64,000 nucleotides of DNA from a virus (IMGVR_UViG_3300031578_000005:32001-96000), one strand, 5' to 3'; shown: positions 14,786 through 48,978, numbered from the stretch's first letter. The notes: generated by a model from the sequence alone, not told the origin. Made by a program: numbers and translations.

Positions 14786-15922
14786 ATGAAACTAATCAGG
14801 TCAACTAAATGTAGTCTGAAGTTCGCTACTGCGAAGAAAAAGAATGATTTACTAACTATCTTGAGTGAATACTCAAAGGTGGTTAATATCTTCATTGACT
14901 ATTTCTGGTTGAATTCTGATAAAGCAACAAAAGGAGAACTTCTTAAACCCGTTGTGGATTTACCACAAGACTCATGGTTGTCGGCTCGACTGAGAAAAGT
15001 TGCAGCAAGAGAAGCAATCGACATGATTAATGCCAGTAAGCAACGATGGAAAGAGAAAGCCGTTAAGCCATTACACAAAGGTCAGAGGATGTATGTTAGT
15101 TGTACCATTGCTGACCTTGTATCAACCAAAAACAATGGTTATAAAACCGAAGACAGCAGACTTTTTGATGCTTGGTTACACATAGCCAGTGTTGGTAATA
15201 AGATGATAATGGACTTGCCGATAAAATACCATAAGCACTTCAACAAATACAATAACATTGGTAGGAGACTGAATTCATATATCATTACCAAGAACTATGT
15301 GCAATTCAGTTTCGAGATAATTACCGAGACAAAGAAGGAAGGTAAACATTGTATCGGTATTGATACAGGTATAAACGCATTGGCAAGTCTTAATAATGGT
15401 AATCAGTATGGTAAGGACATCAAAGGTTGTATCGAGAGAGTTAAAAGATGCAAGCAGAAGTCCAATGGTTATTATGTAGCCAAGAGAGCATTGAAACAAA
15501 GGATTGATGAAACAGCAAAGGAAATATTAGTTAAAGAAACCCCAGATTTAATTGTTGTAGAGCAACTAAAGAAAATGGGATTTAAAAGTAAAGCCAAACG
15601 CTTGTTGGCTAAAAATATCAGGCGTTCTATCGGAACTTGGAATTGGAAGTATTGGTTGAAAAGGTTAGAAGCACAATGCGAGATTAACCGTGTTAGTTTT
15701 CGCAGTGTAGCACCTTATTACACCAGTACAACCTGTCCAATATGTGGTCATTCCGATAGGGGAAATCGACTCGGAGAAGTGTTCTTGTGTCTCAGTTGTG
15801 GTCACGGAGACAATGCAGATATAAATGCGGGTAAGAACATTTTGAATCGATTTCTCACGGGACAATACGGTGCTCGTTACAAGGAAATAAAGGATGTGCA
15901 AGTTTGTGCAGATTTATTTTAA
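14786..15922 (+). CDS. tnpB: TnpB RNA-guided nuclease
   Basis: RuvC GIDTG, VVEQL, NADINA; Zn finger CPICG...CLSCG. Confidence 0.92.
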   Translation: MKLIRSTKCSLKFATAKKKNDLLTILSEYSKVVNIFIDYFWLNSDKATKGELLKPVVDLPQDSWLSARLRKVAAREAIDMINASKQRWKEKAVKPLHKGQRMYVSCTIADLVSTKNNGYKTEDSRLFDAWLHIASVGNKMIMDLPIKYHKHFNKYNNIGRRLNSYIITKNYVQFSFEIITETKKEGKHCIGIDTGINALASLNNGNQYGKDIKGCIERVKRCKQKSNGYYVAKRALKQRIDETAKEILVKETPDLIVVEQLKKMGFKSKAKRLLAKNIRRSIGTWNWKYWLKRLEAQCEINRVSFRSVAPYYTSTTCPICGHSDRGNRLGEVFLCLSCGHGDNADINAGKNILNRFLTGQYGARYKEIKDVQVCADLF

Positions 15923-17527: not shown

Positions 17528-17745
17528 AAAAGGAGTATAAATTCCATCCATTGTTTTTACGTGAATGGAATGTAAGCGGCAAATGCTAATCCTGATTGAG
17601 AATATACTAAAGTAAGGAATAATCATATTGTCGGGTTCAGGGATTGAATCCTACATTAAGCAAAAACGGGATGAGGCGTTGCCATTAGGTGAGTCTATGA
17701 CCCCCGAAGCCCAACCCGTCAGTTTTGCTGTGGGTGGTAGTTCAC
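17527..17745 (+). mobile_element. IS200/IS605-derived MITE (omega-RNA-like right end)
   Basis: ends GAAGCCCAACCC...GGGTGGTAGTTCAC; left part resembles 45357-45440. Confidence 0.7.
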
Positions 17746-17797
17746 AAAATGCAAGCCTATTATTTAGGCAGTTAATTAAATTGAAGAATTAGAAATT

Positions 17798-17872
17798 ATG
17801 AAAAATTTTACACATACTCAGCCCCAACCGCAACAACATCCACAAGAAGTTGAATGGGGAAAATATGTTTAA
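17798..17872 (+). CDS. leader peptide 1 MKNFTHTQPQPQQHPQEVEWGKYV
   Basis: 10 of codons 6-16 are Pro/Gln/His; GAATGGGG pairs with terminator 5' arm. Confidence 0.85.
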   Translation: MKNFTHTQPQPQQHPQEVEWGKYV

Positions 17873-17901
17873 AAATTTTAAGAATATTTTAAAATGAACA
17901 T

Positions 17902-17931
17902 AGACCCCATTCGAAAGAGTGGGGTTTTTTT
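17902..17931 (+). terminator. attenuator terminator 1
   Basis: ACCCCATTC-GAAA-GAGTGGGGT followed by T-run. Confidence 0.85.
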
Positions 17932-17984
17932 GTAACAAAAAATTTGATATTACGTATAGTTGTTCTTTGAAATATAATTTAAAA

Positions 17985-19576: not shown

Positions 19577-19666
19577 ATGAAAAATTTACTCGACATATTG
19601 ATGGTAGTCTTAGCAGTTGACCTATTATGGGCAGATGCAGAGGATAAACTATGTTTAGTCGGGTAA
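19577..19666 (+). CDS. leader peptide 2 MKNLLDILMVVLAVDLLWADAEDKLCLVG
   Basis: 23 of 26 codons after MKN are L/V/D/A/E/W/G/M; GTCGGGT pairs with terminator 5' arm. Confidence 0.85.
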   Translation: MKNLLDILMVVLAVDLLWADAEDKLCLVG

Positions 19667-19693
19667 TGAAAAATTACACTCCTTTCTTAATTG

Positions 19694-19727
19694 AAAAACC
19701 CGACAACTAAAAATGGTCGGGTTTTTT
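19694..19727 (+). terminator. attenuator terminator 2
   Basis: AAAAACCCGAC...GTCGGGTTTTTT. Confidence 0.85.
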
Positions 19728-19807
19728 GTTTTTATAGAAAGGATGTTCTTTGACATGTTGGAAATTTAAAAATAATTGGAGTGGGTTTGTAATCCACTCC
19801 TAAATAA

Positions 19808-21262: not shown

Positions 21263-21975
21263 CAATTTACTTCTAACTTATTATTGATTACATTAATAAC
21301 AATATTTAAATATTTTATTGAGGTTTGTTCTTTGAAATACTTTTGTTGGGAGACATCGATTATACATAATTCAATTCCTTGTTCTAAACAGGCTTGAAAC
21401 TTACGTTGGTCATTATTTTGGATTTGACCTAATTTATCTTCACCAAATATTGGTTCGTAATGGAAAATACCATTAAGTTCAAATGCTAATTTAAGTGAGG
21501 GAATGTAAATATCTAATTCTGAATTGATGGTTGTTTTATTATTGAATAATATTTCTAAATTTCGGTATTGTTTGGTTAATTCAGTTTCAAGATATTGCTC
21601 AAGTTTCGACCTACGATTACCATTTGTTTTGTGTTTATTATTATATGTGGCAGCACATGAACGTGAACAAAAGTGATTGGTAGATTTTTTTTTATCTGAT
21701 AATTGAATCGTAATATTGTTGCCACAATTAGTACATTGAATTATTTCTTTTTTACCTTGTGACGATTGATAACAATTTAATGAACAATATTTACCACTAA
21801 ATTTAGCACTTTTACATGGGATTTGTTTTATTTTACGTTTTGTTAAATAAAAAATATTTGCACAGCCATAACATTTGCATGGTAATTTATCTAATGATTT
21901 TGATGTTAAAAACTCTTGTTCTGTATATAATTTAATCATATAATGATGTTTATAATAAATACTTATAATATTCAT
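21229..21975 (-). CDS. Zn-finger + PD-(D/E)XK/Vsr-like free-standing endonuclease
   Basis: CxxC...YCSxxC, FCSRSC; ELDIYIP..AFELNGIFHY...DQRK. Confidence 0.75.
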   Translation of the reverse strand: MNIISIYYKHHYMIKLYTEQEFLTSKSLDKLPCKCYGCANIFYLTKRKIKQIPCKSAKFSGKYCSLNCYQSSQGKKEIIQCTNCGNNITIQLSDKKKSTNHFCSRSCAATYNNKHKTNGNRRSKLEQYLETELTKQYRNLEILFNNKTTINSELDIYIPSLKLAFELNGIFHYEPIFGEDKLGQIQNNDQRKFQACLEQGIELCIIDVSQQKYFKEQTSIKYLNIVINVINNKLEVNCALSGTRTHTI

Positions 21976-24413: not shown

Positions 24414-24776
24414 GGGGGTGACCGGATTTGACAGCATGTTAGACTGGTAATGTAAGCAGGTAGTAGTTGAATCAGGCTACTTTAAAAAGGTTCAAAGTTA
24501 TAAACGCAAACAATTCCGAGGACATTATGTCCATTCCGACTTCACACTTAATTGTGGGAAGAAGTGCATTTGCAGAGAAAACTGAACTCGCATTTGCTGC
24601 ATAGGAAATAACTAATACAGTTAAGAACTCCTGAGTTGAAAGGATAAATTTAATACAGTTTCATGTTTGAACTGGTAGAATCAATCAATACTTTGTCGGT
24701 TTAGAGAAATCGAATAAACCTGTAGAAAACGTATTAATCACATGTGTGGACGTGGGTTCGAATCCCACTACCTCCA
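24414..24776 (+). ncRNA. ssrA: tmRNA
   Basis: GGGGGTGACCGGATTTGAC 5' end, tRNA-like 3' end GGTTCGAATCCCACTACCTCCA; tag ORF 24506-24604 ending AFAA*. Confidence 0.92.
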
Positions 24777-24796
24777 CTTAAGTAATTATAAATAAG

Positions 24797-25723: not shown

Positions 25724-25798
25724 TGGCGACATCGTTCAATGATAGGACAGCTCTCTCATAAGGAGTTGATACGAGTTCAATTCTCGTTATCCCAACCA
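25724..25798 (+). tRNA. tRNA with CAT anticodon (Met or Ile2)
   Basis: CTC(T)-ctCATaa-GGAG; ends ACCA; imperfect acceptor stem. Confidence 0.65.
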
Positions 25799-27065: not shown

Positions 27066-28163
27066 ATGAAATTACTTGAAAAAATTAATTGGGAAGTCCT
27101 AGATACATATATTGAAAATGGATTGATTATGTCCAATAAGCATCCTGAATACGATATTTGGATTTTAAATTACACACCAAAAACACAATCAAAAAAGTTA
27201 TGGGATGTATATACTATATCATGTCGTGGATTAATTATCGATGTTGATGGTAATATTTTAGCCCGACCTTTTCAAAAATTTAAAAACTTTGAGGAACATG
27301 ATTCTTCAGAAATTGATATGTCATTACCTTTTGAAATATTTGAAAAGCGTGATGGATCATTAATTATATTATTTTACTACGAACTCAGAATGGAATGGAT
27401 TGTTGCATCAAGAGGTTCATTTGCTTCAGAACAATCAATTGAAGCTAAAAAAATATTAGAGTCAAAAGAAAATGCTTTTAAATTCTTAGACATAAAAAAT
27501 ACGTATTTATATGAAGTTCATTATGGCGAAAATAGAATTGTGGTAGATTATGGTGACTTAAGAGACGTGGTGTTATTAACTGTTATTAATTCAAAAACCG
27601 GCTATGAATTATCTTATGATGCAATGAATGAACAATATTCAAATTATTTTGCAATTGTCAAAAGGTTTGATATAAATATTAATTCACTGGATGATTTAAA
27701 AAAACTTGAAGAAGAAAATAAAGAAGGTTTTGTTGTTAAATTTTCGAACAATTTTAGAGTTAAAGTAAAATTTAGTGAATACATTAGATTGCATGGAATA
27801 TTAACAAATGTTTCAAACATAATTGTCTGGGAACATTTGAAGAATAACTATGATTTCGACACATTATTAGACAGAGTTCCTGACGAATTTTATTCATGGC
27901 TTAACAAAACCATTGATAAATTAAAAGGTAATTTCAATGAAATTGAAAGATTATCATTAAAAGAATTTATTAGAATTTACTATATTAATGAGATATCTAC
28001 TCGCAGAGAATTTGCAATGGAAGCAAAGAAGTGTAAATATCGATCGATCTTATTTAAATTGTATGATAAAAATCAATACGATGAAATTATCTGGAAAATG
28101 ATTAGACCAGTTTATAGTAAGCCGTTTTCTCGTCATTTTGAAAATAGTTTGGAAATTAATTAG
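27066..28163 (+). CDS. RNA ligase (T4 Rnl1-like)
   Basis: CRGL, RPFQKF, EKRDGS (KxDG), EGFVV, RVKVK motifs. Confidence 0.88.
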   Translation: MKLLEKINWEVLDTYIENGLIMSNKHPEYDIWILNYTPKTQSKKLWDVYTISCRGLIIDVDGNILARPFQKFKNFEEHDSSEIDMSLPFEIFEKRDGSLIILFYYELRMEWIVASRGSFASEQSIEAKKILESKENAFKFLDIKNTYLYEVHYGENRIVVDYGDLRDVVLLTVINSKTGYELSYDAMNEQYSNYFAIVKRFDININSLDDLKKLEEENKEGFVVKFSNNFRVKVKFSEYIRLHGILTNVSNIIVWEHLKNNYDFDTLLDRVPDEFYSWLNKTIDKLKGNFNEIERLSLKEFIRIYYINEISTRREFAMEAKKCKYRSILFKLYDKNQYDEIIWKMIRPVYSKPFSRHFENSLEIN

Positions 28164-30565: not shown

Positions 30566-30667
30566 ATGAAAAAAGGTAACACATATTATAAAAAGTATTA
30601 TTATAAACATTATGTTTGTAAGACTGGCAATACTGTGTTGTTATCTGAAAAGGAAACTGATAATTAA
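30566..30667 (+). CDS. leader peptide 3 MKKGNTYYKKYYYKHYVCKTGNTVLLSEKETDN
   Basis: 9 of codons 7-16 are Lys/Tyr; TAAGACTGG pairs with CCGGTCTTA. Confidence 0.85.
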   Translation: MKKGNTYYKKYYYKHYVCKTGNTVLLSEKETDN

Positions 30668-30684
30668 AGATAAACGATACTAAC

Positions 30685-30723
30685 AAAAAACCCGGTCTTA
30701 ATTTAATAAGACCGGGTTTTTTT
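30685..30723 (+). terminator. attenuator terminator 3
   Basis: AAAAAACCCGGTCTTA...TAAGACCGGGTTTTTTT. Confidence 0.88.
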
Positions 30724-32050: not shown

Positions 32051-33133
32051 TTGAAAAAATTAACGATTAAAGAAATGCAAGAAATTGCAAAAAAAAGGAA
32101 TGGAAAATGTTTAAGTAATGAATATATTAATATTGACACAAAATTAAGATGGAAATGCGATAAGGGACATGAATGGGAAACTATACCATATTTAATAAAA
32201 AAAGGATGTTGGTGTCCAGAATGTGCTAATAGAAAAAAACATACAATTGAAAAAATGCAAGAAATTGCAAAAAAACGAGATGGAGAATGCATAAGCAATG
32301 AATACATTAATCTGAATCTAAAATTAGAATGGAAATGTAATAAGGGTCATAAATGGAAAGCATCACCAATTAAAATAATTAAGGGTACTTGGTGTCCAGT
32401 ATGTAGTAGAGAACCTACATACACCATTAACGACATGAAAAAAATAGCTATTAATAGAAATGGAAAATGTTTAAGTAATGAATATGTAAATTCATCATCG
32501 AAATTAGAATGGGAATGTGAACATGGGCATAAATGGAAAGCATCTCCAAATCAAATTAAATCAAATAAAACTTGGTGTCCAATATGTTTTAAGAATAAAA
32601 CTATGAAAACTATTGAAGACGCTCACAATCTTGCAAAATTAAGAGAAGGTGAATGCTTAAGCAATAAATATATTAATGTTTTTCATAATCTAAAATGGAA
32701 ATGTAATAAAGGGCATGAGTGGAAGGCTGCATTTCATAATGTTGAGTCAGGTAATTGGTGTCCTATATGCAGAGAGTCTCGTGGCGAAAATAAAATTGCA
32801 ACATTTTTAAGAAAAAATAATATTCAATTTGAAAGACAAAAAACATTTGAAGAATGTAAAAACATTAGAAAATTACCATTTGATTTTTATTTGCCGAAAT
32901 ATAATATTTTGATTGAATTCGATGGTGAACAGCATTTTAATCCCAATTGTTATCATAATAAAAAATATGAGTTTTCGAAAATTAAAAATAATGACAATAC
33001 TAAAACTAATTTTTGTACTAGGAATAATATAATTTTAATTAGAATAAAATATGATGAAAAAAATATAGATAATTTTTTGTCAGAAAAATTTATTACTAAT
33101 TTTATTGATGATGACGATAAAAATCAAAAATAA
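32051..33133 (+). CDS. Zn-ribbon repeat endonuclease (Vsr/DUF559-like C-terminus)
   Basis: four WKCxxGHxW...WCPxC repeats; PFDFYLP...IEFDGEQH. Confidence 0.8.
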   Translation: MKKLTIKEMQEIAKKRNGKCLSNEYINIDTKLRWKCDKGHEWETIPYLIKKGCWCPECANRKKHTIEKMQEIAKKRDGECISNEYINLNLKLEWKCNKGHKWKASPIKIIKGTWCPVCSREPTYTINDMKKIAINRNGKCLSNEYVNSSSKLEWECEHGHKWKASPNQIKSNKTWCPICFKNKTMKTIEDAHNLAKLREGECLSNKYINVFHNLKWKCNKGHEWKAAFHNVESGNWCPICRESRGENKIATFLRKNNIQFERQKTFEECKNIRKLPFDFYLPKYNILIEFDGEQHFNPNCYHNKKYEFSKIKNNDNTKTNFCTRNNIILIRIKYDEKNIDNFLSEKFITNFIDDDDKNQK

Positions 33134-39673: not shown

Positions 39674-39945
39674 ATTTTAAGATGTGATGATGTTAGCTTA
39701 ACATATGTCATATATTATTCAAGTAATTAGATATAAACAAATATATATGATACATTTATTGTTGCAAACATTTACAGTTATAGTTATATTTAGCACAACC
39801 ATTAATATTTGTCTGGTTAATGGTTGTGCTATTAAACTTAATGCTAATTTAGTCTTCTATGAAGAAAAAGATTCAATAATATTTAATCGTAATATATTGA
39901 CAACCAGAGTAAATTAATTATTATTATAAAATAATTTAAAAAAAG

Positions 39946-39987
39946 TTTGCAGATATTGTAACATTTACTAACTTTGTTACGTATTTA
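39946..39987 (+). promoter_or_regulatory. composite promoter of tRNA cluster 4
   Basis: near-identical to 19489-19530. Confidence 0.78.
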
Positions 39988-40019
39988 GATGAAACGAATT
40001 AAGAAAATTGAATAATTTT

Positions 40020-40145
40020 ATGAAAACATTAACGATAAATATAAACATTTCTACATCGACATCAAGTCGCATTGGAGACTCTATATTCTGTTCAAATTTT
40101 AATGGCAGAATTGGAAACATTTTATCGGGTTTTAGTTTTTATTAA
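40020..40145 (+). CDS. leader peptide 4 MKTLTININISTSTSSRIGDSIFCSNFNGRIGNILSGFSFY
   Basis: 35 of 39 codons after MK are T/I/N/S/R/G/F/C; TCGGGTTTT pairs with AAAACCCGA. Confidence 0.85.
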   Translation: MKTLTININISTSTSSRIGDSIFCSNFNGRIGNILSGFSFY

Positions 40146-40168
40146 ATATAAAAGCACTAAATAAATTC

Positions 40169-40200
40169 AAAACCCGAATTCAAAAGATTCGGGTTTTTTT
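40169..40200 (+). terminator. attenuator terminator 4
   Basis: AAAACCCGAAT...ATTCGGGTTTTTTT. Confidence 0.88.
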
Positions 40201-40341
40201 GTGATTATAATTTAAATGTGAATTGAAAAATTCACAAAGTTCATTGACATACTGGTTTTTGGTAATCAAATAAAACTACCTGCTCGTGGTGATTACCGCA
40301 CAATTAATTAATATTAATTGACTAAATGTTTTATGTTATAT

Positions 40342-40430
40342 ATCGGAATGCTTGAGTGGTTTAAAAGCGTGGTCTGCAAAACCAATGGTAATCAATGAAT
40401 TACACGTGAGTTCGAATCTCATTTCCGATT
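40342..40430 (+). tRNA. tRNA-Cys(GCA), long variable arm
   Basis: TGGT-ctGCAaa-ACCA; U discriminator. Confidence 0.8.
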
Positions 40431-40475
40431 CAAAGTTAATTTAAGTTTAAACTATTTATGTAAAATGTTATTAAC

Positions 40476-41084
40476 ATGATACCAATATTATATACAAAAA
40501 GAATTAAATCATTAATTAAAGAGGAATTAAATAGGCTTATTGTTGAAGTTTTTGAAGGTGAATTGAATACAAATTATCAAGAACTATCACAAAAATATGA
40601 TACATATAATGTAATTACATATAGGTTTGAAACCAATTCAAAAACCTCATATGATTTGGAATTTATTTTTAATTATGTTTTAGGTAATGAAAAAATGTCT
40701 GATGGTTCAGAACTATATACACACATATTAAACATGAAACGTACTGATTACATGGAAAGTATTGATATTGGATTTACATTAAGTGATAGAATCAATAATT
40801 TTGGTTTAGATTCTATCGAAGCTAATGAATTTACAAAGAATTCAAATAAGAACGAACCAATCGAATTAATGGGTCGTATTAGCTATTTAATTAAAATGTT
40901 TATAAATTCTAATGAGAATATCAATATTTTTATTGTCGGTAAAAATACTGATAGGAGTAAATTAAAAATTTACAGAACAATATTTAAAAATATCTTTAGC
41001 AATAATTTCATCCTTTTAGAAGGTGAGCATCATGGCTATAATGATGGTGCTTTATATTTCATAAAGAAAACAATATTGACTTAA
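40476..41084 (+). CDS. hypothetical protein with LIKEE leader
   Basis: 202 aa; ACTATTTATG upstream. Confidence 0.7.
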   Translation: MIPILYTKRIKSLIKEELNRLIVEVFEGELNTNYQELSQKYDTYNVITYRFETNSKTSYDLEFIFNYVLGNEKMSDGSELYTHILNMKRTDYMESIDIGFTLSDRINNFGLDSIEANEFTKNSNKNEPIELMGRISYLIKMFINSNENINIFIVGKNTDRSKLKIYRTIFKNIFSNNFILLEGEHHGYNDGALYFIKKTILT

Positions 41085-41256
41085 AATATTAAAGTCTGTG
41101 TTTTGCATATATTGCTATAATATGTAGATTATTGCAAAACATAAACAGTTATTAATATGCTAGTGTTGCTTTAATGGTTTCATATTTAAATTTTATTATA
41201 AAAACTCGAAAATTTAATTTCGAATCATTATTTGTGCACAAAAATAAAAACTATTT

Positions 41257-41329
41257 GGACATATAGCTACAATGGTAGAGCGTCATCCTGTTAAGTTGAA
41301 AGGTCTTGGTTCGAATCCAAGTATGTCCT
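41257..41329 (+). tRNA. tRNA-Asn(GTT)
   Basis: ctGTTaa loop; GGTTCGAATCC. Confidence 0.82.
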
Positions 41330-41339
41330 CATTTTAATT

Positions 41340-41413
41340 ATCCGTGTATATCAATTGGTTAGATGAACACCCTGATAAGGTGTGGGTTGGTGGTTCAAGT
41401 CCACCCTCGGATA
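41340..41413 (+). tRNA. tRNA-Ile(GAT)
   Basis: ACACC-ctGATaa-GGTGT. Confidence 0.85.
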
Positions 41414-41428
41414 CAAAATAAAAATAAT

Positions 41429-41502
41429 GCAGGTAACGCATAAATGATGGTGCACCAGTTTACCAAACTGGAATAGAGTCGGTTTGATTCCGATTACCTG
41501 CT
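41429..41502 (+). tRNA. tRNA-Gly with ACC anticodon
   Basis: GCAGGTA/TACCTGC-T acceptor; CCAGT-ttACCaa-ACTGG. Confidence 0.7.
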
Positions 41503-41565
41503 CATTTACAATTAGTTGAAAATACATTTAGAATGTATTAAAATGAGTTTTGGCTCATTAACATT

Positions 41566-41670
41566 TTATCGTTGACGGAGTGGATTAACGTTGATACGAT
41601 ACTAAAGTCTGAGAGTGATAGTACGTTATCAATACTCAAGGACTCATGGGTTCGAATCCTGTACGATAAT
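41566..41670 (+). ncRNA. tRNA-like RNA with greatly extended anticodon arm
   Basis: acceptor TTATCGT/ACGATAA, D arm and GGTTCGAATCC T arm; long central stem. Confidence 0.55.
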
Positions 41671-41676
41671 TATTAC

Positions 41677-41769
41677 GGTAGAGTACTCAAATTGGTAAAG
41701 AGGTTTGTCCTGAAAACAAATAGGTCGTGTGATGAGCATGATGCGTGGGTTCGAACCCCACTTCTACCT
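41677..41769 (+). tRNA. tRNA-Ser(TGA)
   Basis: TTTGT-ccTGAaa-ACAAA; long variable arm. Confidence 0.85.
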
Positions 41770-42034
41770 CAAACAATTTAACCTGCAAGTTATTTTGTTT
41801 CTCATACAATACTATAAACAAGTTGTTATTGCAGTAATGAATTGATGTAAAGTATGTGTAAATTTTGGGTTGCATAAGAGGCTTTATTTTAATGTTCTGT
41901 GGATTGTTGTATTATACCCGTGGTTGGCAACTCGGAAAATAAGAAAACATTTGAGAGACATTATTATACTTGTAAAATGGTATTGAATAAGTGAGTAGGA
42001 GGCTCACCCCAAAATTTTTAATTTATTATTAAAT

Positions 42035-42109
42035 AGAGATGTAGCTGAGTAGGTTTAGCACCAGTTTGAAGGTCTGGGATTAACGTGGGTTCGATTCCCA
42101 CCGTCTCTA
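42035..42109 (+). tRNA. tRNA-Phe(GAA)
   Basis: CCAG(T)-ttGAAgg-(T)CTGG; GGTTCGATTCC. Confidence 0.7.
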
Positions 42110-42224
42110 CACAAGGTCTTATGAATGTTATTAATTAAACATATTATATTGTTACAATTATATATTACATTATTTTTATGAATTATTTAGTATTTATATT
42201 AAATTCGTCTATAAGACATGAATT

Positions 42225-43454
42225 ATGCAATTAGTTGAACAACATATTATCAATCGTAATCATATATTCTATAATGAATGTGATTCGTTATGTTTTAAAA
42301 CTAAAAATCTATATAATTCATGTTTATATGTCATACGTCAGGCATATATCAATGATAAGGTTAATTTATTATATGATTTACACTCATTAATGAAAGATAC
42401 TGAACAGTATAAAGAACTACCCGCTAAAGTGTCTTCCACAGTGTTGTTAATGATTCAAAAGAATTTCAAATCTTATTTCAAATCAAATGCAGAATTTTAT
42501 AAAAATTCATCTAAATTTAAAGATAGACCTAAATTACCCAATTATTTGGATAAAATAAATGGTAGATATTTTGCTTCATATACAAATCAAGCCATATCAA
42601 AAAAAGTGTTTAATAAATCACATAAAATATTATTATCTAAAACCAACATCGAGTTAACAACCAAAATAGTTGATTTTAATATCATCGATTGTGTTAGAAT
42701 TGTACCGAGATTAGACCACTATGTTATTGAAATAGTATATACCATTCCAGATAAACCTAAATTACCTAACAATAATAAATATTTATCTATTGATTTTGGT
42801 GTTAATAATTTAGCAACAATAACGTCAAATGTTAAAGATGTTAAACCTATTATTATTAATGGTAGACCATTAAAATCAATTAATCAATATTATAACAAAA
42901 AACTGGCACACTATAAATCTAAATTAGAATTGATTAATAAAAAGAAACATAGCAATAGGACAAGGAAATTGACTAACAAAAGAAAAAATAAAGTTGATTA
43001 TTATTTACATAAAGCAAGTAAGACAATTGTTAGTTTAACAAAAAACAATAATATTAACACCATAATAATAGGTAAGAACGATAATTGGAAACAAGGTATC
43101 AACATGACAAAGGCTAATAATCAAAACTTTGTTAATATACCACATAGTAGATTTATAGATATGATTATTTATAAATGCGAAATAGAAGGAATCAATGTTA
43201 TACTACAAGAAGAAAGTTACACAAGTAAAGCATCTTTTTTAAACTTAGATAATATACCTATTTATGGTGATAATCAAAAAAAGCATTTCAGTGGTTATCG
43301 TTATAACAGGGGTTTATATAAAATAAGAGGAAGAAAAGAATTTATTAATGCAGATGTGAATGGTAGTTATAACATATTAAGAAAAGCAATCCCAAAAGCA
43401 TTTGCTGATGGGATAGAGGGTATAGGAGTATATCCAATTAAACTTATGATTTAA
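42225..43454 (+). CDS. tnpB: solo TnpB (IS200/IS605, IS1341-like)
   Basis: SIDFGVNN, LHKAS, QEESYTSK, INADVNG; no Zn-finger Cys; no tnpA adjacent. Confidence 0.88.
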   Translation: MQLVEQHIINRNHIFYNECDSLCFKTKNLYNSCLYVIRQAYINDKVNLLYDLHSLMKDTEQYKELPAKVSSTVLLMIQKNFKSYFKSNAEFYKNSSKFKDRPKLPNYLDKINGRYFASYTNQAISKKVFNKSHKILLSKTNIELTTKIVDFNIIDCVRIVPRLDHYVIEIVYTIPDKPKLPNNNKYLSIDFGVNNLATITSNVKDVKPIIINGRPLKSINQYYNKKLAHYKSKLELINKKKHSNRTRKLTNKRKNKVDYYLHKASKTIVSLTKNNNINTIIIGKNDNWKQGINMTKANNQNFVNIPHSRFIDMIIYKCEIEGINVILQEESYTSKASFLNLDNIPIYGDNQKKHFSGYRYNRGLYKIRGRKEFINADVNGSYNILRKAIPKAFADGIEGIGVYPIKLMI

Positions 43455-43530
43455 TGAAAAAATAATATTTTATATTATTTTAAACTCTGAGGGAGTCCTT
43501 TAAAGATATAAATAACCTGTCCCTCTCCAT

Positions 43531-43603
43531 GCAGCATTGGTGTTTAACGATAGCATATGACTCTTCCAAAGTCGAGGTTTCGGTTTGAATCCGAAATGCT
43601 GCT
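43531..43603 (+). tRNA. tRNA-Gly(TCC)
   Basis: GACT-ctTCCaa-AGTC; GCAGCAT/ATGCTGC-T. Confidence 0.8.
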
Positions 43604-43616
43604 CTCTTATTGATAT

Positions 43617-43690
43617 TGTGGTGTAGCATGATTGGTTTATGCATCTGTCTTATACACAGGAGATTAAGGGTTCAAGTCCCTTCACCACAA
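43617..43690 (+). tRNA. tRNA-Ile(TAT)
   Basis: CTGT-ctTATac-ACAG; GGTTCAAGTCC. Confidence 0.75.
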
Positions 43691-43791
43691 CAAAAAGGTT
43701 GGAAATACGAAAATCAAAGCAGTAACTTTGAGAAGTAAATATTATACCTTCTATGAAAAATGAATTTTACTGATGAAATTTAGTAGTAGTT

Positions 43792-43863
43792 GTTTTATTA
43801 GCATAGCGGATAGTGCGTCTTGCGTTGAGCGAGAAGAGCTTGGTTCGAATCCAAGATAAGATC
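43792..43863 (+). tRNA. degenerate tRNA, anticodon uncertain (GTT or TTG)
   Basis: D and T arms present; irregular anticodon loop. Confidence 0.45.
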
Positions 43864-43928
43864 AAAATTCCTCAATGGAAAGTAGATTTGTTTGTTACGA
43901 TATTATAACTATCTTTACAAAAAAAATG

Positions 43929-44826
43929 ATTATGAAAAGAATTATGTTTTTAACATTTATTTTATTATCAACAATAGCATTTTCGGCAACATATTCTTCA
44001 ATCACCTCTGGTGATTGGAATATTGTTGGAACATGGAATAATAGCATACCAGTTGATGCAAATAATAACATTGTAACAATTAGCGCAGGACATACTGTAA
44101 CTGCAACTAATTTAATTTTTAATAACAGATTTACAATTAATATTGAATCTAGTGCTACATTAATAATTTATGCAAATCCTGTTGATGGAGATGCAATAAC
44201 AGTTAAAAATAATTTAACATTAAATATTGCTGATGGTGGATTAATAATTATTAGCGGTAATTTCAAAGTTAACTGTTGATGGAACATTAACAATTGATGG
44301 AGATTTATCTGCGGGAAATGGTTCGGTATTATTAGGAACTGGAAACGTTACTGTTACAGGAACTGTAACCGGGCCATCAGGATTTGTAACTGATTCACAA
44401 TTGCCTGTTGAATTATTATATTTTAACGCATATTATCAAGATGATGCTGTCGTAATTAATTGGGCAACAGCAAGTGAAACTAATAACGATTATTTTGCTA
44501 TTGAATATTCAGCTAATGCTCAAAATTGGTATTTTCTAACAAAAATAAATGGTGCTGGTAATTCTAAAATCAAAATTGATTATACCTATAAGTATAATGC
44601 CAATAATGATAATTATTACAGGCTTACACAGGTTGATTATAACGGCAAATCAGAAATCTTTACATCTGATATTGTGTATGTTAGCACGCATTATCTAAAC
44701 AAAAACATTAACTATGATATCTATGATATTAATGGTAGATATTTAGGAAATAAAGCAATTAAAAATTTACAGCATGGTATATTTTTAATTAAAAACGACA
44801 ATGAATTTAAGAAAATAATTCATTAA
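43929..44826 (+). pseudogene. Bacteroidota-type secreted protein (signal peptide, LPVEL module, T9SS CTD-like tail), frameshifted near 44265
   Basis: SGDWN..GTW; LPVELLYF..WATASETNNDYF..GAGNS; IYDINGR..GIFLIK. Confidence 0.7.
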
Positions 44827-44833
44827 TTGTAAT

Positions 44834-44918
44834 GCCGATGTCGCATAGTTGGTCAATTGCGCCACACTTGTAATGTGGAATCGTAAGAATGTCGTGGGTT
44901 CGAATCCTACCATCGGCT
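44834..44918 (+). tRNA. tRNA-Thr(TGT)
   Basis: CCACA-ctTGTaa-TGTGG; enlarged variable region. Confidence 0.85.
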
Positions 44919-44947
44919 CTCACTTTAACATAATAAATAACTGAAAT

Positions 44948-45349
44948 ATGAGTTTACAATCAAAAATTAGGACTGACATGGTAGCTGCCATGAAATCCAG
45001 AGATACTGAAACATTGTCATTATTAAGAGTTGCTGCTGGAGAATTTGGAAGGAAAATGAATAACGGCATTGAGCTTCCTGATAACCAAGTAATTGCAATT
45101 CTTAGAAAGATGTGTGAAAATGCTGTTGAAATGGGAAATTTTGGTGAAGTTGAGATTCTCAATAGATACATCCCCAAAATGCTTGATAAAGACCAAACAA
45201 AGGATATTATCGTAGATATTGTCAATAAGAATGGTTTTTCTGGAATTAAGGATTTGGGTAAGATCATGAGTGAATTAAAAAAGATATCTATGGCATCACA
45301 AGTTAATGGCAAATTAGCGAGTGATATTGCCAAACAAATTTTGCAATAG
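44948..45349 (+). CDS. GatB/YqeY domain protein
   Basis: IRTDMVAAMKSRD...LLR...E..ILNRYIPK..GKIMSELKK...NGK. Confidence 0.8.
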   Translation: MSLQSKIRTDMVAAMKSRDTETLSLLRVAAGEFGRKMNNGIELPDNQVIAILRKMCENAVEMGNFGEVEILNRYIPKMLDKDQTKDIIVDIVNKNGFSGIKDLGKIMSELKKISMASQVNGKLASDIAKQILQ

Positions 45350-45356
45350 TATTTAT

Positions 45357-45659
45357 AAACAGGAGAGTAAAACCAATTCATCGCTTTAGCGTGGATGGGA
45401 TGTAAGCGACAAACGTAAGTTTAACCCTGATTTACAGTATTTTACAGAAAAATTAAAAAACTTTAAAGTGAAAGCAACTTTTTGTATATTTATACGTATT
45501 TAATAATATATGCTAAAGTCATTTAAATATTAAGAACTTTGCGTTAAGAAATAATGTATCTGGGACGGATACTAAAACTCGGAACGAACTGCCTACATTA
45601 GTAGGAGTGTTGACTTCCGAAGTCCAACCCATCAGTTTTGCTGTGGGTGGGTAGTTCAC
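45357..45659 (+). mobile_element. internally deleted IS200/IS605 element (MITE)
   Basis: tnpB-like start MLKSFKY joined to a tnpB-like end; right end GGGTAGTTCAC. Confidence 0.72.
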
Positions 45660-45695
45660 AAGTAAATAACATTATTAATTATACAAACATGAAAA

Positions 45696-45929
45696 GTGAT
45701 GAGGGTCCTAAGCAGAGAAAAAACAGCAACATTGTTCTTATTTTTAGGAACATTTTTCAACCCTTTGGGTTACGATGCCCTTTTAAAATGGCTAATGGAT
45801 ACGACAGGGAGTTATTGGTTTTCAATTTCTATTTTTTACCTGTTATCTCTATCATGCTTTATCTCATACTTTGCCTTGGCTAAGATAAATCCATTTAAAT
45901 TAATAAAAATTAGAAAAAATAAGAAATAA
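45696..45929 (+). CDS. small membrane protein
   Basis: two hydrophobic helices, FFNPLGYDAL. Confidence 0.6.
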   Translation: MMRVLSREKTATLFLFLGTFFNPLGYDALLKWLMDTTGSYWFSISIFYLLSLSCFISYFALAKINPFKLIKIRKNKK

Positions 45930-45959
45930 TTAGTAATAGTTATTTCTTATTTTTGTAAT

Positions 45960-46109
45960 TTGTCAGTAATAAGACATTAAAACCTCGTTAGGGACTAACG
46001 AGTACACGAGTGGAGTAAAAGTAAGACTTCTAGCTCTTCAGAGCAGTAAGCAAATTGCTGTGAAACTCGAACCCCAATCCATCAGCTTTGCTGTAGGTGG
46101 GTGGTTCAC
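45960..46109 (+). mobile_element. omega-RNA-like right-end element (copy D)
   Basis: near-identical to 20943-21089. Confidence 0.7.
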
Positions 46110-46131
46110 AAAAATTGTTATATGAGAAAAC

Positions 46132-46205
46132 GTTCGGTTAGCATAATTGAATAATGCACGGCATTTCTAACGCTGCGACTACAGGTTTGAATCCTGTACC
46201 GAACA
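46132..46205 (+). tRNA. tRNA-Arg(TCT)
   Basis: ttTCTaa loop; GTTCGGT/ACCGAAC acceptor. Confidence 0.75.
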
Positions 46206-46333
46206 CAATAAAAAATATATGTGTAGATCAATTGGATTAGTGCCTCACGTTCCTAAAGTGAATATTATGAATTCGAATCTCATTAGTTAAAACATGAATA
46301 TACTATTAGCGAGTCCCGTCTCCGTCACTAAAT

Positions 46334-46405
46334 GTTCCCATAGTTTAATTGGAAAAATTTGGATTTCCTAAATCTAAGACTCAGGTTCAACTCCTGATGG
46401 GAGCA
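46334..46405 (+). tRNA. tRNA-Arg(CCT)
   Basis: TGGAT-ttCCTaa-ATCTA. Confidence 0.75.
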
Positions 46406-46436
46406 CAATAAATTTTAACAATTAAAACTTAAAAAG

Positions 46437-46712
46437 ATGAATATAATTAAAATTGAAAATGTAAAACAAATAACGGGGTTTCAAAATCGACTTGAGATCA
46501 AATCTGATTATAAGTATTCTTCAGAAAATTCGATAATGGCTATCTTAAGTGATGATGATATTAATAATGATAATTGCTTAGTTAAATTAAGAGGATATGT
46601 TATCAACATATTATTATTACCAAAAAGATATAAATATACTTTTAATGAAACTAAAACTGGTGAACTAATTGCAATACAATTAAGTAAAAATTGTGTTATT
46701 AGTTATTATTAA
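46437..46712 (+). CDS. hypothetical protein
   Basis: 91 aa ORF between tRNAs. Confidence 0.55.
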   Translation: MNIIKIENVKQITGFQNRLEIKSDYKYSSENSIMAILSDDDINNDNCLVKLRGYVINILLLPKRYKYTFNETKTGELIAIQLSKNCVISYY

Positions 46713-46715
46713 CAT

Positions 46716-46787
46716 GTCCCCATAGTTTAATTGAAAAAATGAAAGTCTTCGAAACTTAGGATATCGGTTTGACTCCGGTTGGGGATA
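46716..46787 (+). tRNA. tRNA-Arg(TCG)
   Basis: AAGT-ctTCGaa-ACTT. Confidence 0.72.
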
Positions 46788-46845
46788 CGAAATATAAACG
46801 TCTCTATGGTGTAATTGAATAGTACAATTTTACGAAAATAAATAT

Positions 46846-46921
46846 GTGCCTGTATCGCACTTCGCTACGAACGAAGAGAAGCGTAATTGGATACATGTGG
46901 GTTCGAGTCCCATCGGGCATT
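46846..46921 (+). tRNA. non-canonical tRNA-Arg(ACG) lacking a normal D arm
   Basis: CTTCG-ctACGaa-CGAAG; GGTTCGAGTCC; TGTATC pairs with GATACA in the variable region. Confidence 0.62.
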
Positions 46922-46993
46922 CAAAAATAATTAATGTTATTTTGTAACAATATCAGATTATTTTCGTAAAATTGTATAAATAAAAATTATATT

Positions 46994-47878
46994 ATGATAT
47001 CAAGAAGAGGTGGTTTAAAAGAACTGGCAATTTTCGATAATTTCGAAATTGATCGTAAGTTGCCAAAATATGCAAAAGATGATGCATCGGGTAAAAAAAG
47101 TAATAGCAATTTTATTAATTTTAATAATACCGGTGACTCAGAATCTGATGAAGGTGGTGTATGGCTGACAACGCAAACTACGAGTGGTAATGTTTCGATG
47201 AAACAACCATTTGGCGGTAACAGTTTTAGAAACAAATTAGTTAATTGGTTATTAAGAAAACCAAAAGTAATTGTGCCTGTTGCTAAAATTGGCGTAATTG
47301 AATTTTTCACCAATTTATCTAAATCATATACGGAATTAACACCAATTGCTGATATTGCTACACATTATAAAAATGCGTTGCTTCAAGCAAATAATATGGG
47401 ACAAACTGCATTGGTTGAAAAGCTCAAGAACCTTATTGATGTAGTGAGAGGTGAAGCACATTTAATTCAAATGAATTTAAGAAAATATGTTACAGAAAAA
47501 CAAGTAATTGATTTTTATGAACTTGTTGGTGAAGATAAGAATTTAAAACTGACATGGATTAAGAATTTTGGTAGAATTATTCCAGATGAGGTTTATGAGA
47601 TCAAAAAAAATGTTGATGAAAGAAATGTTTTTGATAATTACGTTATTCTTCACTATGATCCGGAAAATAATGGTGAAGCTTTAACTAAAGCAGAAATTGA
47701 AAAGAAAAAAGACCCGATATTATTTGGTGTAATAAAAAACAGTAAAAAACTTTATTATGTTGCTGACTGGAAAGATGATTATTGCGAATTAACATTAGAA
47801 GAAATGTTTACAAAACTAGGTGATAAGGTGTTGAAGATTAATAATAAAAACGTTAAAACATTTATTGATAAAGTATGA
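46994..47878 (+). CDS. conserved phage protein (KKKDPILFG...YYVADWKDDYC family)
   Basis: 294 aa; ECF-type promoter at 46943. Confidence 0.75.
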   Translation: MISRRGGLKELAIFDNFEIDRKLPKYAKDDASGKKSNSNFINFNNTGDSESDEGGVWLTTQTTSGNVSMKQPFGGNSFRNKLVNWLLRKPKVIVPVAKIGVIEFFTNLSKSYTELTPIADIATHYKNALLQANNMGQTALVEKLKNLIDVVRGEAHLIQMNLRKYVTEKQVIDFYELVGEDKNLKLTWIKNFGRIIPDEVYEIKKNVDERNVFDNYVILHYDPENNGEALTKAEIEKKKDPILFGVIKNSKKLYYVADWKDDYCELTLEEMFTKLGDKVLKINNKNVKTFIDKV

Positions 47879-48231
47879 ATACAACAGTAACTAAATTAGC
47901 AAATAATATTTCAAAGTTAACGACAGAAGAAATTGATGAATTAAATACCGTGCTTATAAATATGGGAATCGCATCAAATATTTATAAGTATTCAAATGGA
48001 ATTATTAATAATTCTCAATCAACGGCATATAATGTTTATCTCACAAGTGCTGGTGATAAAAAAATACTTATGGTCAAAACGCTTAAAGAATTATTTGGTA
48101 TTGGACTTAGAGAAGCTAAGGATATTATTGATAGTATACCTTGTCTTTTAGCTGAAGATGTTTCAATTGACATTGCTGAAGCATATAAAAATGATATCGA
48201 AAGTATTGGTGGTAAGATTGAAATAAAATAA
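47875..48231 (+). CDS. rplL: ribosomal protein bL12 (L7/L12) homolog
   Basis: VYLTSAGDKKI.MVKTLKELFGIGLREAKDIID..P...GGKIEIK matches the L12 CTD pattern. Confidence 0.8.
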   Translation: MNTTVTKLANNISKLTTEEIDELNTVLINMGIASNIYKYSNGIINNSQSTAYNVYLTSAGDKKILMVKTLKELFGIGLREAKDIIDSIPCLLAEDVSIDIAEAYKNDIESIGGKIEIK

Positions 48232-48237
48232 TATATA

Positions 48238-48582
48238 ATGAAAAAATATTTATTTGTTGGTGAAAAACGCTCAAATACTGCAATTCGAATGAATGTGACA
48301 TGGATAGATAAAAAATTAAGTGCAGGACATTTATCAAAAGCGGTTGAAAATATTGGGATTAATTGGGATGAATGTGCATTCAAAAACGTATTTGAAGACA
48401 ATATCGAGGATATTGCATCTTTTGATGGTATTATTATTGCAATGGGCAGAAAGGTTGAGAAAGAACTTAAAAAATATCAAATTAAACATGAATTTATATT
48501 TCATCCCGCAACGCGTGGCGAAGTTAGAAACATTGAAAAATATAAACAACATGTCAAAGATAGAATAGGGCATATCGTATGA
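48238..48582 (+). CDS. UDG-superfamily-like small protein
   Basis: LFVGE...IIAMGRK...FHPA motifs. Confidence 0.45.
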   Translation: MKKYLFVGEKRSNTAIRMNVTWIDKKLSAGHLSKAVENIGINWDECAFKNVFEDNIEDIASFDGIIIAMGRKVEKELKKYQIKHEFIFHPATRGEVRNIEKYKQHVKDRIGHIV

Positions 48583-48601
48583 CTATTTCACACTCTAATA
48601 T

Positions 48602-48692
48602 GGAAGATTGCCAGAGCTGGTTGATTGGGACACCCCGCTAAGGTGTTGTACAACTTAGACTTGTACCGTGGGTTCGAATCCCACATCTTCCT
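48602..48692 (+). tRNA. tRNA-Ser(GCT)
   Basis: ACACC-ccGCTaa-GGTGT; long variable arm. Confidence 0.85.
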
Positions 48693-48978
48693 CTTGGTTG
48701 TTTTTGTACTCTCATTGTTTTTATGGAAAAGCACAATTATGGAAATTATGCTGAATATTTTACTAAGCATTTTAGTATTTATTACCAAACAAAATGTATG
48801 TGGGAATATGATAGAGTCGTAATTAAATTCAAACAAAATGATGAATTACTTGAAAGAATTAATCATTTGGGTGCTAATGGGTGGGAAATTATAAGTTATA
48901 TTGAAAATACACCAAAAAAATTTAGTGATTCTTGGGAAAGTACTATACTTATAAAAAGAAAATTAAAATAAAACCAGT

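Follow-up and report, generated by a model that had tools for sequence, protein, structure and literature searches.

A putative leader-peptide attenuator ahead of phage tRNA genes for eight amino acids, and three sister units in the same genome

Introduction

Leader peptides control amino-acid biosynthesis operons in the trp, his, leu, and pheA attenuators. Multivalent attenuators carry mixed codons, including the thr leader with Thr and Ile codons and the ilv leaders with Ile, Leu, and Val codons, and the pheM leader forms an attenuator over pheST, which encodes a transfer RNA (tRNA) synthetase. T-box riboswitches, in turn, work without translation, through direct binding of uncharged tRNA. 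The control of phage tRNA genes, and the presence of near-complete tRNA sets in large phages, are open questions. Here we examine a 64,000-nucleotide (nt) stretch of a virus record (IMGVR_UViG_3300031578_000005, positions 32001-96000; hereafter the window), in which a short open reading frame (ORF), leader ORF 4 or leader 4, precedes a block of tRNA genes at 40342-48693 (block 4). On the sequence evidence, leader 4 is probably a ribosome-mediated (leader-peptide) transcription attenuator that gates this block of the phage's own tRNA genes, a reading to which we assign a probability of roughly 0.78.

Compared with the trp, his, leu, and pheA attenuators, the locus has the same layout of a short ORF rich in regulatory codons, an intrinsic terminator, and a terminator 5′ arm that can alternatively pair with the ORF end, and the antiterminator would likewise be chosen by a stalled ribosome. 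It differs from them in that tRNA genes rather than enzyme genes lie downstream, that eight amino acids rather than one are represented, that it is phage-borne, and that four such units divide the 20 amino acids among them; the downstream genes are tRNA genes and a few inserted ORFs, not biosynthesis or aminoacyl-tRNA synthetase genes. As in the thr and ilv leaders, the codons are mixed and shortage of any one would lead to read-through; however, those leaders combine two or three metabolically linked amino acids, whereas the eight found here share no pathway and are grouped solely by the downstream tRNA genes. At pheST, as here, charged tRNA is sensed and a component of the translation apparatus is controlled, but the product there is a charging enzyme for one amino acid, while here it would be the sensed tRNA itself, for many amino acids. 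With the T-box the locus shares a terminator/antiterminator switch that would report tRNA status and stands over translation-related genes; unlike the T-box, the signal would be read by the ribosome, and the T-box model (RF00230) gave no match at gathering score in the window, nor at E ≤ 1 over 39900-48800. The Rfam leader families (Trp, His, Leu, Thr, and similar) also gave no match at gathering score in the whole window or at E ≤ 1 over 39900-48800. The tRNA genes themselves resemble the arrays of large phages, where dozens of tRNA genes and a transfer-messenger RNA (tmRNA) cluster in a jumbo phage genome, and appear to differ from the described arrays in the predicted leader peptides and attenuators ahead of them.

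We rate the switch itself as classical; what is new, in our view, is that the genes under its presumed control are tRNA genes, that one leader covers eight amino acids, that four units partition the amino acids, and that a virus carries them. A search of full texts outside the subscription journals returned no paper on leader peptides or attenuators ahead of tRNA genes or phage tRNA arrays, and a term search of an attenuator survey (PMC2965389) gave 0 occurrences each of "tRNA genes", "tRNA operon", and "phage".

Results and discussion

Codon content of leader 4 and its relationship to the downstream tRNA genes

Leader 4 and the tRNA genes of block 4 are located as follows:

40020-40145, + strand: leader ORF 4, 41 codons plus TAA (ATG at 40020, stop codon at 40143-40145)
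40342-40431, + strand: tRNA-Cys(GCA)
41257-41330, + strand: tRNA-Asn(GTT)
41340-41414, + strand: tRNA-Ile(GAT)
41429-41502, + strand: tRNA-Gly(ACC), found by Rfam only (42.5 bits), anticodon read by hand; ARAGORN calls Gly(acc) at this place in relatives
41677-41770, + strand: tRNA-Ser(TGA)
42035-42110, + strand: tRNA-Phe(GAA)
43531-43604, + strand: tRNA-Gly(TCC)
43617-43691, + strand: tRNA-Ile(TAT)
43792-43863, + strand: tRNA-like gene with an aberrant anticodon loop lacking U33, called Gln(TTG) by ARAGORN
44834-44919, + strand: tRNA-Thr(TGT)
46132-46206, + strand: tRNA-Arg(TCT)
46334-46406, + strand: tRNA-Arg(CCT)
46716-46788, + strand: tRNA-Arg(TCG)
46846-46921, + strand: weak tRNA-like sequence (Rfam 30 bits against a gathering score of 29), with an ACG loop assigned by hand and no normal D arm
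48602-48693, + strand: tRNA-Ser(GCT), the last tRNA of the block

After the initial Met-Lys, 35 of the 39 codons of leader 4 were found to specify the eight amino acids of the downstream tRNAs (Thr 4, Ile 7, Asn 5, Ser 8, Arg 2, Gly 4, Phe 4, and Cys 1), the other four being Leu (twice), Asp, and Tyr. The codon count thereby agrees with an earlier reading of this DNA made from the sequence alone (the sequence-only reading), as does the presence of three ATA codons that it had matched to tRNA-Ile(TAT). Codons 3-34, 30 of 32 of which belong to the set, all lie upstream of region 2, the antiterminator arm that begins at 40124. A concern that late-positioned Phe and Cys codons might not permit antiterminator formation does not arise, since these occupy codons 23-27 (40086-40100), far upstream of this arm. 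When the well-supported anticodons of block 4 were compared by hand with the leader, 11 of 13 had a cognate or wobble codon in it, including the three ATA codons for Ile(TAT).

An explanation that needs no regulation is that this composition is a by-product of AT-rich sequence and chance. The G+C content of the 64-kb window is 29.6%, its proteins are rich in Asn, Ile, Ser, Thr, and Phe, and the eight amino acids together make up a share of 0.448 in its long ORFs, which served as background. The leader nevertheless departs from this background with a binomial tail of 5e-9; none of 20,000 dinucleotide-preserving shuffles reached 35 (mean 21.8, maximum 32); and among 267 small ORFs of the window, taken from all six frames, the share of leader 4 was matched by leader 4 alone. 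AT bias alone is rejected on these grounds, which settles the shuffling test that had been named for it. In addition, Lys, the commonest background residue (10%), falls to 1% in the pooled leader-4 homologues described below, all eight amino acids of the set, including the rare Cys, occur in 26 of 26 homologues, and the three other leaders of the window are biased to different sets. An origin by composition and chance is thus vanishingly improbable.

Every well-supported tRNA of block 4 falls within the eight amino acids; of the two doubtful genes, one looks Asn-like and the other like Arg(ACG). The first of these, at 43792-43863, is most similar to the Asn(GTT) tRNA of the window (53 identical positions, vs 34-48 for the Gln tRNAs), and relatives have a second Asn(GTT) gene at its place after Ile(TAT). 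At the place of the second, 46846-46921, relatives carry Arg(ACG). The tRNA list of the sequence-only reading held for Cys, Asn, Ile (GAT and TAT), two Gly, two Ser, Phe, Thr, and three Arg; its fourth Arg corresponds to the weak sequence at 46846-46921, and the gene at 43792-43863 was absent from it. The tRNA-Gly at 41429-41502 is unusual in its A34 anticodon (ACC).

Terminator and alternative pairing in leader 4

The elements considered for the switch are:

40124-40134, + strand: region 2, the antiterminator 5′ arm, located within the ORF, 9-19 nt ahead of its stop codon
40170-40180, + strand: region 3, the terminator 5′ arm, pairing with region 2 or region 4
40186-40200, + strand: region 4, the terminator 3′ arm (40186-40196) and T-run, found by the terminator scan
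40033-40039, + strand: possible region 1, an anti-antiterminator candidate with weak AU-rich pairing to 40121-40127 in the full-length minimum-free-energy fold
40048-40078 and 40080-40115, + strand: two internal hairpins in the core of the leader, which is conserved at the nucleotide level; candidate pause or synchronising hairpins

The terminator hairpin spans 40170-40196 with a folding free energy (dG) of -13.0, and its T-run extends to 40200. Region 2 is the best complement of the terminator 5′ arm; the region 2:3 duplex has a dG of -12.8, an energy reached by 0 of 200 and 1 of 500 shuffles. The pairing with the terminator arm that had been proposed at 40125-40133 is therefore real, with 40124-40134 as the paired segment. 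When the transcript was cut just before region 4, the antiterminator fold was obtained, and the full-length transcript gave the terminator fold. The invariant columns of a homologue alignment (A1) fall within the region of the internal hairpins (40048-40115).

Conservation in related phages

Related loci were gathered by way of the neighboring VWA-domain gene, which makes the set unbiased as to the leader. Among 19 such loci, five are without a tRNA block downstream in the available sequence (L013, L017, L018, and L021 contain no such block there, and for L019 the sequence stops at the match). All 14 loci that carry block 4 have a leader of 39-45 codons, 29-36 of them in the own set, and a terminator immediately ahead of the first tRNA. 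Scanning viral contigs with a pattern gave 68 matches, of which 28 passed the leader filter, 2 were added by eye, and 38 were unrelated. The resulting set of leader-4 homologues comprises 26 distinct sequences, with L071 left out of the fold counts for its interrupted terminator T-run. In L071 (- strand, two matches) leader 4 is duplicated: copy 1 stops after ~30 codons and continues as unrelated sequence, and copy 2 is complete but has the interrupted T-run.

All leader-4 homologues are open, with ATG starts, lengths of 35-49 codons, and a conserved peptide core. The own-set share across the 26 homologues was 0.83 in frame 0 vs 0.31 and 0.41 in the other frames, frame 0 being higher in 26 of 26, and the off-frames contain on average 1.6 and 3.4 stops. 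These findings bear on the possibility that no translation takes place and the leader acts as a structured RNA, such as a T-box-like tRNA-binding switch in which the open frame is incidental. Such an RNA could account for the strong nucleotide conservation at synonymous sites and for the two conserved internal hairpins, but not for an own-set bias that is confined to frame 0, nor for an ORF that stays open in every homologue; together with the lack of a T-box or other Rfam leader match at gathering score or at E ≤ 1, this makes an untranslated RNA highly improbable. Besides coding, RNA structure or selection for particular codons (particular isoacceptors) acts on leader 4, and the conservation fits either one.

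A terminator was detected in 26 of 26 homologues (dG -11.0 to -18.3), and in all 26 the best partner of its 5′ arm lies within the last 45 nt of the ORF. The region 2:3 energy was on average -13.7 for native partners vs -11.1 for mismatched ones, a difference in favor of native pairing that 0 of 10,000 derangements reached. In alignment A2, changes on both sides were found in 8 of 12 antiterminator pairs, with a covariation score reached by 0 of 500 shuffles, and 74.8% of cells were paired vs at most 54.7% in slid registers; as the A2 segments were cut by our own duplex search, these pair counts lean towards structure. The MAFFT alignments A1 and A3 were out of register in the terminator 5′ arm and were excluded from the pair counts. 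One homologue (L068) has the central C of region 3 and the central G of region 2 changed together, and its region 4 still pairs through a wobble.

Conservation of the other units was examined in the same way. Ten of 10 Lys/Tyr blocks have a Tyr/Lys-rich leader and a terminator, a count that omits L008, with its block at the edge of the locus, L005 and L015, with only one tRNA each, and L010 and L016, whose flanks contain none. The four tRNA groups are the same in five complete relatives. In these, the Asp/Glu/Val/Leu/Ala/Trp block is preceded by a leader and terminator in 5 of 5, and the Pro/His/Gln block in 4 of 5 within 500 nt; in the fifth the unit lies ~780 nt upstream, behind an inserted endonuclease gene. 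Counting the genome of the window together with the five relatives, leader and terminator are present for 24 of 24 blocks, the own-set counts leaving out the leader 1 peptide of G002. Two finer correspondences were looked for: an extra Leu(CAG) tRNA that heads the Lys/Tyr block of L012 is not mirrored in its leader, the extra Leu codon being CTT, and by eye the presence of Thr(GGT) showed no clear relation to ACC/ACT codons in the leaders of the related loci. At the far end of block 4, a tRNA with the anticodon CTA (a TAG suppressor, labeled Pyl by ARAGORN) occurs in several relatives (G001 at 282907, G004 at 33976, L119 at 11205, L013, and L017); none was found in the window, where the stop codon of all four leaders is TAA.

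Three sister units in the window

The label "Attenuator 4" of the sequence-only reading placed the locus among several, and three sister units with the same logic are indeed present in the window:

17798-17931, + strand: sister unit 1, with ORF 17798-17872, antiterminator arm 17851-17868, and terminator 17902-17927, followed by tRNAs for Pro (two), His, and Gln (three)
19577-19733, + strand: sister unit 2, with ORF 19577-19666, antiterminator arm 19657-19665, and terminator 19693-19727, followed by tRNAs for Asp, Glu (two), Val, Leu (three), Ala, and Trp
30566-30723, + strand: sister unit 3, with ORF 30566-30667, antiterminator arm 30618-30628, and terminator 30688-30719, followed by tRNAs for Tyr and Lys (two)

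The codon counts of the four leaders, each with the number of shuffles that reach it, are:

Leader 1 (Pro/His/Gln): 10 of 22 codons in set; 4 of 20,000 shuffles
Leader 2 (Asp/Glu/Val/Leu/Ala/Trp): 21 of 27 codons in set; 0 of 20,000 shuffles
Leader 3 (Tyr/Lys): 12 of 31 codons in set; 12 of 20,000 shuffles
Leader 4 (Cys/Asn/Ile/Ser/Phe/Gly/Thr/Arg): 35 of 39 codons in set; 0 of 20,000 shuffles

When the four leaders were tabulated against the four tRNA sets, the diagonal dominated; leader 4, for example, has 35 codons of its own set vs 0, 3, and 1 of the others. All four units share the same make-up (promoter box, leader ORF, terminator, matching tRNA block), and the four blocks plus a tRNA-Met at 25726 cover all 20 amino acids. 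The antiterminator arm is near the ORF end in all four leaders, the observed energies being reached by 0, 2, 7, and 1 of 500 shuffles, respectively, and a region 1:2 pairing is clearly visible in the fold of leader 2. Unit 1 alone has a more G+C-rich stretch of ~250 nt (17528-17775, G+C 0.36-0.39) between its promoter box and its leader ORF, with a folding energy of -65.6 kcal/mol (z -1.97) and no Rfam match at E ≤ 1.

This four-way arrangement also bears on whether the same hardware might respond to another signal, namely amino-acid starvation or a slowdown of host translation, as an infection-state switch for early genes that include the tRNAs. Stalling in classical attenuators depends on charged tRNA, so starvation would open the gate too, and protein genes are present in block 4, including those for a YqeY-like protein and an L7/L12 C-terminal domain protein. 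A general sensor, however, would have no need for four leaders that split the amino acids exactly as the tRNA blocks do, a split kept in six genomes, and amino-acid starvation is not cured by extra tRNA; we consider this signal improbable. A reading that we favor, with some reserve, is that the four multi-amino-acid leaders, which cover all 20 amino acids and would each gate exactly the tRNA genes that decode their codons, constitute a codon-resolved tRNA-pool homeostat in a virus, which would be the first attenuator in which the sensed molecule is the product. The four-way division of the 20 amino acids, conserved as it is, may mirror a tendency of certain tRNAs to fail at the same time.

Proposed mechanism and points that weigh against it

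Transcription by the host RNA polymerase would start at the promoter box near 39946-39976 and proceed through the 41-codon leader, which the translating ribosome would use as a codon test strip for eight amino acids. With all of the needed charged tRNAs plentiful, the ribosome would reach the stop codon at 40143 and cover, or have just unwound, region 2; with region 2 masked, region 3 (40170-40180) would pair with region 4 (40186-40196) and the polymerase would terminate at the T-run. The ribosome footprint sizes behind this masking argument are those generally known. If instead any one of the eight tRNA kinds were scarce, the ribosome would stall upstream and leave region 2 free to pair with region 3, which would block the terminator and allow transcription into the Cys, Asn, Ile, Gly, Ser, Phe, Thr, and Arg tRNA genes. 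The tRNA product would then relieve the stall, a negative feedback on tRNA supply. The three sister units would act alike for Pro/His/Gln, Asp/Glu/Val/Leu/Ala/Trp, and Tyr/Lys.

In this scheme we infer the translation of the leader, the stalling, the read-through, and the extent of the read-through transcript. Sequence analysis itself shows the ORF with its frame-specific bias, the terminator and the pairing that competes with it, and the conservation of all of these, and the attenuator reading first made from the DNA alone was supported in each part open to sequence tests (codon bias, terminator/antiterminator, sister units, and compensatory conservation).

Several observations, besides the lean of the A2 pair counts noted above, weigh against this attenuator: (i) leader 4 lacks cognate codons for Arg(CCT) and Arg(TCG); (ii) the core of the leader is kept at synonymous sites too, indicating an RNA-level constraint beside, or in place of, coding; (iii) region 2 ends 20-28 nt before the stop codon in several homologues, where part of it would stay uncovered by a ribosome at the stop, and the off state would therefore depend on timing rather than on a parked ribosome; (iv) block 4 spans 8.5 kb and includes nine protein ORFs, among them a TnpB-type insertion; (v) internal promoters of a phage-specific type could lie within block 4; and (vi) a conserved 12-nt motif sits past the terminator and, were it a promoter, the attenuator would be bypassed. 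With respect to the length of the block, the + strand between 40200 and 48693 had one weak pattern match only among terminator-like hits, inside an ORF at 43997, and the strict promoter pattern had no further match within block 4.

If the proposed attenuation holds, the phage would gauge decoding capacity per amino acid and make tRNA on demand, and leader-peptide attenuation would reach from metabolism to the translation machinery itself. Such a phage could replenish just the tRNAs that are missing from the host or are destroyed by host anticodon nucleases, in which case the homeostat would double as a damage sensor in the tRNA arms race. A T4 Rnl1-like RNA ligase and a tmRNA are encoded in the same region. 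The system is directly testable, with sharp predictions for single codons and single tRNAs, and would provide synthetic biology with small sensors of natural origin for individual tRNA pools.

Upstream box and elements between the terminator and the first tRNA

Three further elements flank leader 4:

39946-39976, + strand: promoter-like two-box element, in a ~45-nt box (repeat D1) common to the four leader units
40239-40250, + strand: conserved 12-nt motif of unexplained function, between the terminator and the first tRNA
40261-40333, + strand: candidate self-cleaving ribozyme resembling that of hepatitis delta virus (HDV), just 5′ of tRNA-Cys (Rfam RF02682, below threshold)

Both the window and the complete 128.5-kb record contain four copies of the core of the ~45-nt box, found only ahead of the four leaders. 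The strict two-box pattern has five matches on the + strand of the window, three of which precede leaders, and the exact promoter-box pattern had 0 matches in the viral contigs. Transcription presumably starts a few bases downstream of 39946-39976. The element fits the two-box consensus reported for Bacteroidota, and this fit suggests use of the host polymerase and a Bacteroidota host.

The 12-nt motif has four matches in the window (17962-17973, 19745-19756, 21327-21338, and 40239-40250) vs 0.63 expected, three of them following leader terminators. In relatives it holds the same place, 13 nt or 22-29 nt ahead of the first tRNA. Its position raises the question of whether promoter, small ORF, and terminator form a free-standing small gene for a peptide or small RNA, with the tRNAs starting separately downstream, for instance at 40239-40250. 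The conservation of the motif, the conserved peptide core, and the strength of the terminator are compatible with such a gene. The spacing found in several relatives, however, leaves little room for a promoter, and the motif is rare elsewhere, with just 1-5 copies per complete genome (five genomes, 330-365 kb), which rules it out as a general phage promoter. A free-standing gene would also leave the compensatory conservation of the antiterminator pairing unexplained, and we judge it unlikely. The motif may be a processing or pause signal, and a promoter role for it seems unlikely.

The HDV-like element scored 28.2 bits with RF02682 against a gathering score of 44. A homologue is present at the same position in L119 (6220-6290) with one compensatory pair, and at E ≤ 0.5 the element was not recovered in 13 other related loci. 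In view of the alignment of its core and of the L119 homologue, it is retained as a candidate only. An active ribozyme here would cleave the leader from the read-through transcript.

The phage genome and other genes of the region

The window derives from a 128.5-kb IMG/VR virus record with a CheckV completeness estimate of 39%. Its phage identity is backed by PHROG matches to a large terminase subunit, a helicase, a ribonucleotide reductase, homing endonucleases, and the T4 Rnl1-like RNA ligase. When sequencing runs were searched for this sequence, no RNA run was listed as containing it. There are 31 tRNA calls and a tmRNA in the window, every one on the + strand, and three additional tRNA-like genes are visible only to Rfam or at a relaxed threshold. 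Cargo related to translation and tRNA repair was found among the tRNA blocks (the T4 Rnl1-like RNA ligase at 27066-28163 and the tmRNA at 24414-24777), including block 4 (the YqeY-like protein at 44948-45349 and the L7/L12 C-terminal domain protein at 47875-48231). Mobile genes and other insertions lie in and around the blocks, including a TnpB-type OrfB_IS605 gene inside block 4 (42225-43454), a second transposase (14786-15922), an HNH homing endonuclease (32051-33133), and an ORF on the - strand between tRNA-Leu and tRNA-Ala (21340-21950).

A megablast search of 20 kb against an isolate phage collection gave no match, and the nearest isolates reach just ~30% identity in the neighboring VWA-domain protein. 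Its closest relatives, at 327-365 kb, are genomes of uncultured phages, and two of these carry terminal repeats. Two relatives (L118 and L119) are filed as contigs of Patescibacteria/Paceibacterota metagenome-assembled genomes, and one of them has 362,763 bases, equal to the virus record G003; these contigs are probably phage genomes binned as tiny bacteria.

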